Source: Shigella phage Sf17. From it: a DNA stretch of 64,000 nucleotides. A program made the position numbers and the translations under genes. Positions 58,075 through 60,748 of this stretch are shown piece after piece (within the stretch, counting starts at the first letter, position 1; each line of letters opens with the position of its first letter). The stretch lies in sequence record MF327004; one strand, given 5' to 3'. The notes under the pieces were generated by a model. It was not told the DNA's origin and did not search any database. It saw only the letters and a program-made list of their open reading frames with translations.

Positions 58075-58938
58075 ATGTCTAAAGTTGTTAAAATGAAAGC
58101 TCCGGTAGAGAAGTACAATGGTCAAGAACGTGAGACTCTGCGTTACCTGCTGAAAGATGTTTGGTTCTATTACCTGAACACTATTCCACGCCCTCAAAAG
58201 GGTAAATCTGTGGATAAGCATTTTCCGGGCAAAGATTGTAACTACAGCGTTTCAATTCTGGCAAAAGATGGTAACAAGCTCTTTAAAGAGTTCACCAAGT
58301 CTAAAAAGAGTCCTGAAGGTTGGGATAAAGTTACTACAGAGGCTGTTGATGCAGATGACTTCGAAGAGAAGTTTGGTTGTGAGCCTCCGTTTGAAGCTGA
58401 CACCTATCACATCCTGAAGGTTAGCCGTTCAGCAGCATATAAAGATGGTGCTGTGTGGTCAGCAAAACAGAGTTTCCCTGTAATGCTGGTTGAAGAAATC
58501 AACGGTAAGCGTGTTGCAGTTAAGCAGCCTATGAAGAAAATCAAGGCAGCAAAATCTGATAAGCACGATGATGATAAGACTTACGATGTAATTCATCCAG
58601 ATATTGCAGTTGGTAACGGTTCATTTGGTAGTGTGATTCTGGCGACTCACTTCTACACATTTGAAGGTAACGTTCTGACCAAGCCAATTCAGGAACAATT
58701 TATCATTGATACTCTGGTTCCTTACACTGGTGGTACTGGTGGTGCTACTGAGACTGAACTGGATGAAGATGAACTGGCAATGCTTGGTCTTGCAGGTGTT
58801 GAAGACAACGGTGAAATCACTGAAGAAGATGCAAAAGATTCTGGTGATGAAGGTAAAGGTGGTGATGACGACGATGACGACGACCTGCCAAACCCAGATG
58901 ATGACGACGAAGATGATTTCGAAACTGACGACGAGTAA
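58075..58938 (+). CDS. putative single-stranded DNA-binding protein with acidic C-terminal tail
   Basis: C-terminus GDDDDDDDLPNPDDDDEDDFETDDE resembles acidic tails of phage SSBs; located within the replication block. Confidence 0.5.
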   Translation: MSKVVKMKAPVEKYNGQERETLRYLLKDVWFYYLNTIPRPQKGKSVDKHFPGKDCNYSVSILAKDGNKLFKEFTKSKKSPEGWDKVTTEAVDADDFEEKFGCEPPFEADTYHILKVSRSAAYKDGAVWSAKQSFPVMLVEEINGKRVAVKQPMKKIKAAKSDKHDDDKTYDVIHPDIAVGNGSFGSVILATHFYTFEGNVLTKPIQEQFIIDTLVPYTGGTGGATETELDEDELAMLGLAGVEDNGEITEEDAKDSGDEGKGGDDDDDDDLPNPDDDDEDDFETDDE

Positions 58939-58973: not shown

Positions 58974-60041
58974 ATGGGGCTTTTTCGTATGGAGAGTACA
59001 ATGGAACAATACACCTTAACAAAGCTCCCAGAGAGCGTTACACACGTCTTTATTGACTCTGATAGCATTGCTTACAAAGGTGCTTGTGTAGTTGAAAAAG
59101 CAAAGTACAAGTATGTGAATAAAATCACTGCTGAAGAATCCGACGCTTTTGATAGTGCAAAACTGGCAGCACAATGGCTGTCTGACCAAAGAGTTTTAAC
59201 TGAAGAGTTAGGACTTGACTTTGATGAAGATGAATGGGAAAGACAGACTTGGAAGGAGGCTAAGAGTGAAGCTGAAGCAATTATGGCTACACAGCAAGTT
59301 CTTCAGGAGTGGTTGAAAGTCGTTGGTAAAGAACGCAAATGGATGGGTTACCTTACTGAGAAAGGTGTTCACAAACACAAGGATATCAAAGGTCTTGAAC
59401 ACCAATACCAAGGTAACAGAAAAGAAGCTGTAACACCTACACACCTAGTTGCTTGTCGTGAGTATCTTCTGTCACGACCAGAGTTTAAGCTCCTAAAGGG
59501 GGGCTTCGAAGCAGACTCTATCGTTATTGCAAAAGCTGAGAAGATGGGTAAAAAAGCTGCTCTGATGAGTATTGATAAAGACCTTCGTCAAGCTGAAGGA
59601 ACTTACTGTATTGATATGACTTACGAGAAAGCTCCATTAATTTTCATTGCAGATAATAACGTTGGTGAGATTTGGGATTGCCCTATCAAATCTAAACCGA
59701 AAGCTAAGAAGACAGTCGGAGTAGGTTTTAAATTCCTCTGCTATCAAGCTGTAGCAGGTGATAATGCAGATAACTACTTCGGTTTAAAAGGTGCTGGTAA
59801 GGTTGCAGTGATGAATGCACTGGAAGGTAAAACTACCTACAAAGAGTGCTTAGACGCAATCTATGAGCTTTATGCTAAGAAAGAGTCATACACCTATGAA
59901 TCATGGGATGGTCAGATTGTGACAAGAACTCCACTAGAATTAATGGAGCAACACTTCTGGATTGCTTATCAAGAACGAAATCCTAAAGATGATTTTACGT
60001 TTAAAAAATACAATTGGGAGCCAGTTATGAATGAAGATTAA
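58974..60041 (+). CDS. 5-prime to 3-prime exonuclease / flap endonuclease (RNase H-like)
   Basis: N-terminal acidic cluster VFIDSDSIAY and H3TH-like motif GDNADNYFGLKGAGKVAV; true start may be an internal Met near 59001. Confidence 0.6.
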   Translation: MGLFRMESTMEQYTLTKLPESVTHVFIDSDSIAYKGACVVEKAKYKYVNKITAEESDAFDSAKLAAQWLSDQRVLTEELGLDFDEDEWERQTWKEAKSEAEAIMATQQVLQEWLKVVGKERKWMGYLTEKGVHKHKDIKGLEHQYQGNRKEAVTPTHLVACREYLLSRPEFKLLKGGFEADSIVIAKAEKMGKKAALMSIDKDLRQAEGTYCIDMTYEKAPLIFIADNNVGEIWDCPIKSKPKAKKTVGVGFKFLCYQAVAGDNADNYFGLKGAGKVAVMNALEGKTTYKECLDAIYELYAKKESYTYESWDGQIVTRTPLELMEQHFWIAYQERNPKDDFTFKKYNWEPVMNED

Positions 60042-60531
60042 AGGATTTGGAAATTGCCCTGTTTATGGACATTGGGTTTCACTGTGCGGGGAAATTGACC
60101 CCGCTAACTATTTTGGTTTTGTCTATTTAGTATACTGTAAGAAAACTGGACAATATTATATTGGAAAGAAACAATTTAATAACGTCACTAAGAAAAAGGT
60201 TGCTGGAAAGACCAGACGTAAAGTCGTGACAAAAGAAAGTGATTGGATGACTTATCAAACATCTTCTGAATACATTAAGAAAGATATTGAATCTTTTGGT
60301 GAAAAAGAGTTTGACTTCTACATCATCCAGACTTACTATACGCGAGGTGGCTTAGTTTATGGCGAAGCTAACCTACAACATAAGTTTGACGTCATGACAA
60401 AAAGGATTGACTCTAAGCTTCGACTCTTCTACAATGCAAACATTGCAGCAATCAAGTTTCTTACAAAAGAGACTTATGATGAAGCTGAGAAGAGAATCAC
60501 TAAAATCATGAAACTTAATGAGAGAGTTTAA
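60031..60531 (+). CDS. GIY-YIG-type nuclease domain protein
   Basis: FGFVYLVYCKKTGQYYIGKK fits GIY-(10-11 aa)-YIG spacing, followed by conserved Arg/Glu/Asn positions. Confidence 0.45.
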   Translation: MKIKGFGNCPVYGHWVSLCGEIDPANYFGFVYLVYCKKTGQYYIGKKQFNNVTKKKVAGKTRRKVVTKESDWMTYQTSSEYIKKDIESFGEKEFDFYIIQTYYTRGGLVYGEANLQHKFDVMTKRIDSKLRLFYNANIAAIKFLTKETYDEAEKRITKIMKLNERV

Positions 60532-60532
60532 A

Positions 60533-60748
60533 ATGTTTAATAAAATCAAAAATGACCATGTTTCTAAAATCCAGAGTGGTGTAGCAGCACTGAAGGAAAC
60601 TATCAGTAAAGCTAAGTCAGCTACAGAAGCTGAGATGGATGCTCTGGAATCACAAATTCAACATCTGTTAAGCAAACGTGTTGAACTCAAAGAACGAATG
60701 GACTATATTGAGTCTCAACAAAAGTTGTTTGAAGATAAGGAGGCTTAA
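60533..60748 (+). CDS. hypothetical coiled-coil protein (start trimmed from 60518)
   Basis: ATG at 60533 follows upstream stop. Confidence 0.4.
   Translation: MFNKIKNDHVSKIQSGVAALKETISKAKSATEAEMDALESQIQHLLSKRVELKERMDYIESQQKLFEDKEA

Follow-up and report, generated by a model that had tools for sequence, protein, structure and literature searches.

A tail-less SegE-family GIY-YIG nuclease fixed beside an exonuclease gene in Felix O1-like phages, with a possible junction-resolving role

Introduction

Pfam family SegE_GIY-YIG (PF19835) is named after the T4 homing endonuclease SegE, which has been reported to be an active endonuclease. The seg genes are sporadically distributed among the T-even phages. 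I-TevI relies for targeting on three parts outside its GIY-YIG catalytic domain: a linker, a zinc finger and an HTH domain. T4 denA, which encodes the GIY-YIG protein endonuclease II, is non-essential. T7 endonuclease I, the product of gene 3, has a PD-(D/E)XK-like fold unrelated to GIY-YIG; it is required for growth and takes part in the breakdown of host DNA. Structure-selective GIY-YIG nucleases are represented in eukaryotes by Slx1 and At-HIGLE, both very distant relatives of the protein described below; Slx1 contains a RING domain, and its fungal and animal forms depend on Slx4 (PMC9071465). Our literature search found no earlier description of a phage GIY-YIG resolvase, or of a GIY-YIG protein in the Felix O1-like phages (Ounavirinae). 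Here we compare a GIY-YIG gene from this phage lineage with these systems.

Results

The window analysed, a 64,000-nucleotide stretch of Shigella phage Sf17 (MF327004), matches Shigella phage Sf19 (MF327005.1) at 100% identity; in that record the gene is gp86, annotated as a "GIY-YIG homing endonuclease". The gene is an ATG-started ORF on the + strand (60031..60531, stop codon included) encoding a protein of 166 aa and 19 kDa. The upstream exonuclease gene extends 11 nt into this ORF, and a GGGAG Shine-Dalgarno sequence (60016..60020, +), read from the sequence 10 nt before the ATG, lies within the 3′ end of the exonuclease gene.

The original prediction had called this a stand-alone GIY-YIG domain, and an HMM search bore that out: PF19835 matches with E=1.1e-27 and 97.1 bits, against a gathering cut-off of 25, over profile positions 11–123 of 123. 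The same family is matched by 150 of 150 sampled relatives, and the PHROG 447 profile (148 positions) accounts for residues 8–153. The label "NAD synthetase" attached to PHROG 447 and to RefSeq records is not upheld; a Pfam search to E 1 returned SegE_GIY-YIG only, and an NCBIfam search returned no NAD synthetase model. The predicted lack of a DNA-binding extension also held, in that no NUMOD, HTH or zinc finger module, as joined to the nuclease domain in free-standing homing endonucleases of the Seg type, was found in the protein. NUMOD3 tails are present in 48 of 150 diverse relatives, and tails in the NUMOD3, NUMOD1 or HTH families taken together in about a third of the 150 (at least 48).

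The GIY-(10-11 aa)-YIG signature is present as FVY(30–32)-x10-YIG(43–45), FVYLVYCKKTGQYYIG. It lies within the core motif of residues 29–47 (GFVYLVYCKKTGQYYIGKK; 60115..60171, +), some of whose columns are invariant when 150 or 95 diverse relatives are aligned. Y43, G45, K47, W72, Y75, S78, E112 and N135 are invariant in the 150 relatives, at 27–61% identity, and Y32 is conserved in at least 90% of them. The codons of the four putative catalytic residues were checked in the sequence and lie on the + strand at 60124–60126 (Y32), 60157–60159 (Y43), 60364–60366 (E112, in the catalytic helix of residues 105–118, 60343..60384) and 60433..60435 (N135, in FYNANIA). W72, Y75 and S78 belong to a loop at 60244..60264 (+). 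Together with the predicted fold described below, these features show the gene to be a tail-less member of the SegE Pfam family with an intact set of catalytic positions, and nuclease activity is predicted from them.

Three further elements surround the core, all on the + strand. The N-terminal beta extension (residues 1–28, 60031..60114), recognized in the alignments and the structural model, carries a GHW motif whose W15 is invariant in one alignment of relatives (A3) and at least 90% conserved in another (A2). A Lys/Arg-rich beta-hairpin insertion (residues 50–69, 60178..60237) appears as strands 50–55 and 64–69 in the model and as a gap relative to T4 SegE; it is a candidate DNA-contacting arm. 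Finally, a C-terminal amphipathic helix in the model (residues 151–164, 60481..60522) lies outside the Pfam domain, and no DNA-binding family matched it in the Pfam scan.

An AlphaFold model built from the 95-sequence alignment (pLDDT 94) has the characteristic GIY-YIG alpha/beta fold and supersedes an earlier model from a shallow 10-sequence alignment, which was poor over residues 106–148 (pLDDT 68). The nearest structural match is the catalytic domain of I-TevI (PDB 1LN0, 1MK0), which shares 14% sequence identity with gp86. In the model, E112 sits in helix 105–118 after strand 94–102, and the order of secondary-structure elements suggests that E112 is the counterpart of I-TevI Glu75 and N135 the counterpart of Asn90 (GYNIA). 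When profiles were compared, the alignment to I-TevI covered the GIY and YIG strands alone, at a probability of 13%, so these active-site equivalences rest on conservation and secondary-structure order. The I-TevI helix bearing Arg27 and His31 is replaced in gp86 by the beta-hairpin and the W72/Y75/S78 loop. No invariant Arg corresponding to the canonical Arg after YIG (I-TevI R27) was found among the relatives; a low-confidence profile alignment pairs T61 and R62, both in the hairpin insertion, with R27 and the adjacent W28 respectively, and the invariant K47 may stand in for the canonical residue. Nothing relevant was found in the PDB by sequence, whether the query was the protein or either of two profiles.

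T4 SegE shares with gp86 the GIY-x10-YIG-K motif, the Y-x2-S loop, the catalytic Glu helix and the YN motif, and the pairwise BLASTP match is insignificant (E=0.046). The N-terminal GHW extension, which is missing from I-TevI as well, and the basic hairpin are present in gp86 and absent from SegE, whereas a C-terminal part of about 100 aa in SegE (205 aa in total) is missing from gp86.

The distribution of the gene shows it to be a vertically inherited core gene of the Felix O1-like phages. It is full length in 256 of 256 related phage records, the same number as have the neighbouring exonuclease gene, and the match is a single uninterrupted piece in 254 of them, the exceptions being EC6 and KMM4, where it falls in two pieces. 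No allele lacking the gene was found among the related records. The same gene order occurs in Mooglevirus, Suspvirus, Felixounavirus and Kolesnikvirus and in a Hafnia phage, and thus in at least four Ounavirinae genera. The dN/dS of the gene (0.02–0.07) equals that of the exonuclease gene and is below that of MazG, and its divergence follows that of the neighbouring genes. In contrast to the fixed GIY-YIG gene, an HNH endonuclease gene is inserted sporadically beside it in some relatives. The sporadic presence and absence typical of the T-even seg genes is therefore not seen in the 256 records, and the suggestion that gp86 is a mobile element of the minimal homing endonuclease kind is not supported, given this universal presence together with the fixed synteny, the low dN/dS and the contrasting HNH insertions.

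The gene is embedded in a replication/recombination block of the T7 type, comprising genes for a dNMP kinase, a primase-helicase, an acidic-tail protein, an exonuclease, the GIY-YIG protein, MazG and ribonucleotide reductase. The exonuclease (gp85; 59001..60041, +), identified from the ORF list, PHROG and the annotation, is a FEN/PIN-like 5′–3′ exonuclease of PHROG 107 and the proposed functional partner of gp86. Upstream of it, gp84 (58075..58938, +; 287 aa) has an extremely acidic C-terminal tail and belongs to PHROG 3877, a family of unknown function. It is possibly a single-strand-binding protein; an HMM built without Ounavirinae sequences relates it to gp2.5-like proteins at only about 10 bits, which is a hint. 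Downstream, the small coiled-coil gene gp87 (60533..60748, +; Pfam, PHROG 4442, annotation) begins 2 nt past the GIY-YIG stop and is kept in this position in the Ounavirinae. No other resolvase is present in the PHROG annotation of SUSP1, and none was seen in Sf19 among the matches listed (25 of 37 Pfam families; 111 small proteins).

Relatives of gp86 in uncultured environmental phages show a similar arrangement. An exonuclease gene lies directly upstream in 42 of 83 environmental loci, and it is of the FEN type in 13 and of the unrelated Cas4/PD-(D/E)XK type in 29. The two genes overlap or abut in 41 of the 42 pairs. Pairing was found in 42 of the 47 loci that contain any T7-type replication gene and spans three gene orders. 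In the reverse test, a GIY-YIG gene was found at or near the slot just downstream in all 77 FEN-type exonuclease loci; within a wider span, 74 of the 77 have it in the slot itself. In some phages the same slot is filled by full-length, NUMOD3-tailed forms resembling true homing endonucleases.

After the Cas4-type exonuclease (79 loci), the slot holds GIY-YIG in 33 cases and T7-type endonuclease I (PF05367, Phage_endo_I; E 1e-35 to 7e-48) in 22. Within 3 kb, 33 of these loci have GIY-YIG only, 32 have endonuclease I only, one has both and 13 have neither, and all 23 GIY-YIG-positive module loci whose flanks average 14 kb lack endonuclease I. The two enzymes are thus nearly mutually exclusive (Fisher test, p=2e-10, a value to be discounted because the loci are phylogenetically clustered and independence is overstated). 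The GIY-YIG and endonuclease I loci form separate sub-lineages, with exonuclease identity of at most 61% between and 87–94% within them, so the exclusion may reflect few events. An Endo VII-like gene accompanies GIY-YIG in about eight loci. In T5, the RusA-like resolvase gene D14 adjoins the PHROG-107 exonuclease gene; in T7 itself, genes 3 and 6 are not neighbours.

Functional-screen data are available for the SUSP1 orthologue agp056 (94% identical), which was scored "Not Fit" on CRISPRi-ART knockdown (0.50, p=0.48). The SUSP1 orthologues of the exonuclease and of gp84 (agp054) were both Fit in the same study. The predicted RusA-like resolvase D14 of T5 was also Not Fit, the known resolvase gene 49 of T4 does not appear at its place in the numerical order of the Fit and Semi-Fit genes as far as these are listed there, and the authors themselves report false negatives. 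Because D14 and gene 49 were not scored Fit and false negatives occur, the result for agp056 is weak evidence against a resolvase. A separate PhageMaP preprint describes a GIY-YIG protein, gp77 of Bas63, that counters retron Ec67; the gene in question is bas63_0077, whereas the orthologue of gp86 is bas63_0057.

Discussion

Chances are about even, in our judgement, that gp86 is a domesticated structure-selective endonuclease which, to judge by the position of its gene, plays a junction-resolving role beside the exonuclease, as the gene 3 product does in T7. Its ancestor would have been a relative of homing endonucleases, and the sequence-reading tail would have been lost. Through one-metal GIY-YIG catalysis by Y32, Y43, E112 and N135, the protein would cut branched DNA (Holliday junctions, forks and D-loops) arising from recombination-dependent replication, and these cuts could create or clear substrates for the adjacent exonuclease. 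The basic hairpin of residues 50–69 and the N-terminal extension may make up for the missing DNA-binding domain by contacting DNA or mediating dimerisation. Such a role would parallel that of T7 endonuclease I in T7-like phages and of the predicted RusA-like D14 in T5. In T7-type modules endonuclease I fills the slot that gp86 has, immediately after the exonuclease, and both proteins are small and have no separate DNA-binding domain; functional equivalence of the two is suggested by gene position. A broader and more tentative proposal, whose chances we put somewhat below even, is that a tail-less SegE-type clade was recruited from homing endonucleases as the junction-resolving or debranching enzyme of T7-type modules, displacing T7 endonuclease I, and that it is universal in the Ounavirinae and present in many uncultured environmental phages.

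A different role, which we regard as unlikely, is degradation of host or foreign DNA. In the manner of T4 endonuclease II or of T7 gp3/gp6, the protein could nick or cut non-phage DNA, from which the exonuclease would yield dNMPs for the neighbouring nucleotide enzymes, or it could attack competing elements or defence nucleic acids. The genes for the exonuclease, dNMP kinase, MazG and ribonucleotide reductase that adjoin gp86 are consistent with this, as are the participation of its positional counterpart, T7 endonuclease I, in host DNA breakdown and the agreement between a non-essential denA and the Not Fit score. T4 endonuclease II (DenA, PDB 2WSH) is, like gp86, a stand-alone phage GIY-YIG protein; the two are close in size, and each has additional elements surrounding the core; however, the nearest structural relative of gp86 is I-TevI rather than endonuclease II, and neither DenA-specific similarity nor a sign of host DNA degradation was found. 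Moreover, we know of no reported DNA modification or other self/non-self marker in the Ounavirinae that would protect the phages' own DNA. An orthologue 93.9% identical to gp86 is encoded by the superspreader phages SUSP1 and SUSP2, and yet these phages, in which DNA-degrading endonucleases were said to be absent, release intact, transformable plasmids (PMC5241400). The suggestion of a host-DNA-degrading nuclease of the T4 kind is therefore disfavoured, and the release of intact plasmids is easier to reconcile with structure-selective than with promiscuous cleavage.

Homing could still be the present function if gp86 were an active free-standing endonuclease that cuts a specific site in related genomes without the gene, using the hairpin or a partner protein for recognition. 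We consider this improbable. Membership in a Pfam family named after SegE, the structural match to I-TevI and the existing GenBank annotation all point towards homing, as do the NUMOD3, NUMOD1 or HTH tails in about a third of the relatives, some of them in the same slot, and the use of the exonuclease/GIY-YIG junction as a hot spot by a mobile HNH gene. Against this, every related genome has the gene, so that no empty target allele is seen; strong purifying selection is not expected of a fixed selfish endonuclease; the protein contains no DNA-binding module in the Pfam scan; and homing into a homologous site cannot explain why the gene adjoins exonucleases of two unrelated families and does so in three gene orders. 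Less probable again, to the point of being very doubtful, is the reading of gp86 as a homing endonuclease in decay, or already without catalytic activity, that is kept only by translational coupling to its neighbours. The missing tail, the canonical position without an invariant Arg, the lack of a fitness defect on knockdown and the two-piece gene in the EC6 and KMM4 records could be read in this way, but the whole-gene dN/dS, the invariant or nearly invariant Tyr, Tyr, Glu and Asn positions in relatives down to about 30% identity and the uninterrupted match in all other records argue against decay, and SegE, reported to be active, also has a Lys directly after YIG (YIGKH).

Should the proposal of a structure-selective, junction-resolving enzyme fail, gp86 would be no more than an ordinary GIY-YIG nuclease, already annotated as such. 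If it holds, hundreds of phage genomes, including those of Felix O1-group phages used in therapy and typing, mislabel the gene as "homing endonuclease" or "NAD synthetase". The protein would then be the first Holliday-junction resolvase of the GIY-YIG type known from a bacterial virus, and GIY-YIG would become the fourth protein fold among phage junction-resolving enzymes. It would offer a concrete example of a domesticated homing-endonuclease domain and a clear case of a selfish nuclease turned core replication enzyme. For the Felix O1 group, in whose examined annotations and scans no resolvase appeared, it would supply the debranching enzyme.

Genomic context of the GIY-YIG gene

Shigella phage Sf19 (MF327005.1; genus Mooglevirus, Ounavirinae) matches the window at 100% identity, and its record coordinates minus 637 give window coordinates. 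In Sf19 the GIY-YIG ORF (60031–60531, + strand; 166 aa, ATG start) is gp86, with the annotation "GIY-YIG homing endonuclease". It shares its first 11 nt with the end of the preceding exonuclease gene, has a ribosome-binding site (GGGAG) 10 nt 5′ of its ATG and stops 2 nt before the following gene. The surrounding block, ordered dNMP kinase, primase/helicase, acidic-tail protein, 5′–3′ exonuclease, GIY-YIG, small coiled-coil protein, MazG-like protein and ribonucleotide reductase genes, with a family A DNA polymerase gene just upstream on the opposite strand, is a T7-type replication set. The acidic-tail protein (gp84; 58075–58938, + strand; 287 aa) has an extremely acidic C-terminus that recalls T7 gp2.5, with D/E runs and, five residues from its end, a Phe. 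It matches PHROG 3877 ("unknown function"), and an HMM of gp2.5-like proteins gives it only ~10 bits. Its orthologue in phage SUSP1 is among the strongest Fit genes in the rows shown of the CRISPRi-ART data (score 2.82, p = 3e-7; PMC11879866), and gp84 is probably the phage single-strand-binding protein.

Two further small proteins of Sf19 are encoded outside the window. An alternative candidate for a small nuclease of this genome is gp101 (L005:61–369, in a comparison stretch; 103 aa), a "putative endonuclease" whose sole Pfam match is DUF7390. The anti-retron "GIY-YIG gp77" of Bas63 in the PhageMaP preprint is not the orthologue of gp86; it corresponds to a further gene of this lineage, unrelated to gp86 and encoding 171 aa (bas63_0077, L007:21949–22461; Sf19 gp102, record 71324–71839, L005:425–937). 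No Pfam domain was found in the Sf19 copy, and PHROGs matched it to an HNH endonuclease only weakly (E = 4e-4).

Nuclease domain and architecture

The original prediction of a GIY-YIG nuclease domain is borne out by the HMM search, in which Pfam SegE_GIY-YIG matches gp86 far above the curated cut-off (E = 1.1e-27). PHROG 447 also matches (1e-47); its label, "NAD synthetase", is supported by neither Pfam nor NCBIfam. That label has spread to many RefSeq records of Ounavirinae and T4-like cyanophages, for example NC_042017, NC_028808 and NC_006883 (comparison stretch L003:3944–4381).

An exhaustive HMMER search yielded 2,275 clusters of relatives, about half of 130–190 aa and the remainder of 200–400 aa. 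Across a sample of 150 relatives (27–61% identity), Y43, G45, K47, W72, Y75, S78, E112 and N135 are invariant and W15, G29, F30 and Y32 are conserved at ≥90%; gp86 thus has intact Tyr, Tyr, Glu and Asn positions in its GIY-YIG active site. No invariant Arg equivalent to I-TevI Arg27 was found among the 150; where I-TevI carries this residue on a helix, gp86 has a Lys/Arg-rich beta-hairpin (residues 50–69) and the W72/Y75/S78 loop. T4 SegE shows marginal pairwise similarity to gp86 and lacks both its hairpin and its N-terminal GHW extension. NUMOD3 tails occur in 48 of the 150 relatives, and NUMOD1, I-HmuI-like or HTH tails in others, whereas no NUMOD/HTH-type tail was found in gp86, in agreement with the predicted lack of a DNA-binding extension.

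Conservation within the Ounavirinae

A full-length copy of the GIY-YIG gene is present in 256 phage records (tblastn, E below 1e-60); the neighboring exonuclease occurs in an equal number (256 records at ≥60% identity). In two of the 256, EC6 (NC_027369.1; two annotated proteins, 87 aa and 91 aa) and KMM4 (OP902293.1), the gene is in two pieces, owing either to a frameshift introduced by sequencing or to true inactivation. The order exonuclease–GIY-YIG–small protein–MazG is common to Mooglevirus, Felixounavirus (BPS15Q2, Bas63), Suspvirus, a Hafnia phage and Erwinia phage phiEa21-4. A truly sporadic element at the same site provides a contrast: a 113-aa HNH endonuclease gene lies exactly between the exonuclease and GIY-YIG genes in BPS15Q2, Moogle, Sf14, Sf16, CHB7, EcSzw and others, and is absent from other relatives and from the window (junction 60027–60041; compare L002:2666–3004). 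The HNH gene looks genuinely mobile, with the junction as its insertion site. Pairwise dN/dS of the GIY-YIG gene is 0.02–0.07 for pairs with unsaturated dS (exonuclease, 0.03–0.11; MazG, 0.03–0.16), and the amino-acid divergence of its product parallels that of the exonuclease. The gene is vertically inherited and under selection, neither decaying nor homing.

Pairing with exonucleases and alternation with endonuclease I

The pairing extends beyond the Ounavirinae. Seven metagenomic contigs with short-form relatives were inspected, and in four (three identical loci of relative P0207 and the loci of P0178 and P0011) the GIY-YIG gene and the end of an exonuclease gene overlap, in a block with primase-helicase, family A polymerase and gp2.5-like genes and, further on, ribonucleotide reductase. 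In a fifth contig, that of relative P0220, a Cas4-type exonuclease lies ~1.5 kb upstream, with two ORFs between. The contig exonucleases belong either to PHROG 107, as in Sf19 (FEN-type), or to the unrelated Cas4-domain PHROG 1990. When 80 IMG/VR loci were added to these contigs, an exonuclease stood directly upstream in 42 of the 83 loci with enough upstream sequence (13 FEN-type, 29 Cas4-type), overlapping or abutting the GIY-YIG gene in 41 of the 42. The pairing occurs in three different gene orders and in 42 of 47 loci showing any T7-type replication gene; about half of the relatives occupy other contexts, such as T4-like cyanophages. Viewed from the exonuclease side, GIY-YIG is at or near the position directly downstream (the slot) in 77 of 77 FEN-type loci (72 immediately downstream; 74 by a wider window), none of which contains T7-type endonuclease I (EndoI). 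Tail-less, NUMOD3-repeat-tailed and N-terminally extended versions occupy the slot (L063:3418–4242, L066:3773–4651, L071:5791–6343), and some environmental slot relatives carry an extra CxxC...CxxC segment, a possible zinc finger, before the GHW motif.

At Cas4-type loci (n = 79), the slot holds GIY-YIG in 33, Phage_endo_I in 22 (Pfam E 1e-35 to 7e-48) and other genes in the remaining 24. When up to 3 kb from the exonuclease is counted, 33 loci have GIY-YIG only, 32 EndoI only, one both and 13 neither (odds ratio 0.012; nominal Fisher p 2e-10, which is not a true probability because the loci cluster in separate GIY-YIG and EndoI sub-lineages, with exonuclease identity ≤61% between and 87–94% within them). 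A few displacement events may lie behind the pattern. EndoI was found in 0 of 23 GIY-YIG-positive modules with flanks averaging 14 kb. An Endo VII-like gene co-occurs with GIY-YIG in about eight loci and with EndoI in two. In T5, the RusA-like resolvase D14 is immediately upstream of D15, a PHROG-107 exonuclease as in Sf19 (PMC11879866 supplement). No resolvase appears in the SUSP1 annotation, nor among the 25 listed of the 37 Pfam families matched by 111 small Sf19 proteins.

Predicted role

The role we consider most likely for gp86, at roughly even odds, is that of a structure-selective nuclease cutting branched intermediates of replication and recombination, as endonuclease I does in T7. 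Caveats on this reading are the few displacement events that may lie behind the alternation, the NUMOD3-tailed forms in the slot, the co-occurring Endo VII-like genes and the relatives in other contexts. CRISPRi-ART scored the SUSP1 orthologue agp056 as Not Fit (0.50, p = 0.48, 7 guides) and its neighbors agp054 (acidic-tail protein) and agp055 (exonuclease) as Fit (PMC11879866). This result says little against a resolvase function, because T5 D14 is likewise Not Fit beside Fit neighbors (D15 exonuclease, D11 SSB), T4 gene 49 is missing at its numerical place from the Fit and Semi-Fit lists among the rows shown, and the authors acknowledge false negatives.

Degradation of host DNA, one of two functions originally proposed, or of foreign DNA is unlikely: SUSP1 and SUSP2 both carry a 93.9% identical orthologue, yet release plasmids intact and transformable, which their authors attribute to a lack of hydrolytic endonucleases (Keen et al., PMC5241400), and this argues against promiscuous, EndoII-like activity in vivo. 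The other proposal, a minimal homing endonuclease, could draw on the NUMOD3-tailed forms resembling real homing endonucleases in the same slot, but the non-sporadic, full-length distribution, fixed gene order, vertical inheritance and selection make active homing more doubtful still. That gp86 is an inactive remnant is very improbable given its low dN/dS and intact active-site positions.

In the searchable literature we found neither a phage GIY-YIG resolvase nor GIY-YIG/EndoI displacement described before. Because the gene is already annotated and its family known, the finding is of moderate interest unless experiment confirms the resolvase role. The best description of the gene product is a tail-less, domesticated GIY-YIG nuclease from the SegE clade; the gene is a core part of the Ounavirinae replication/recombination module, coupled to the 5′–3′ exonuclease.
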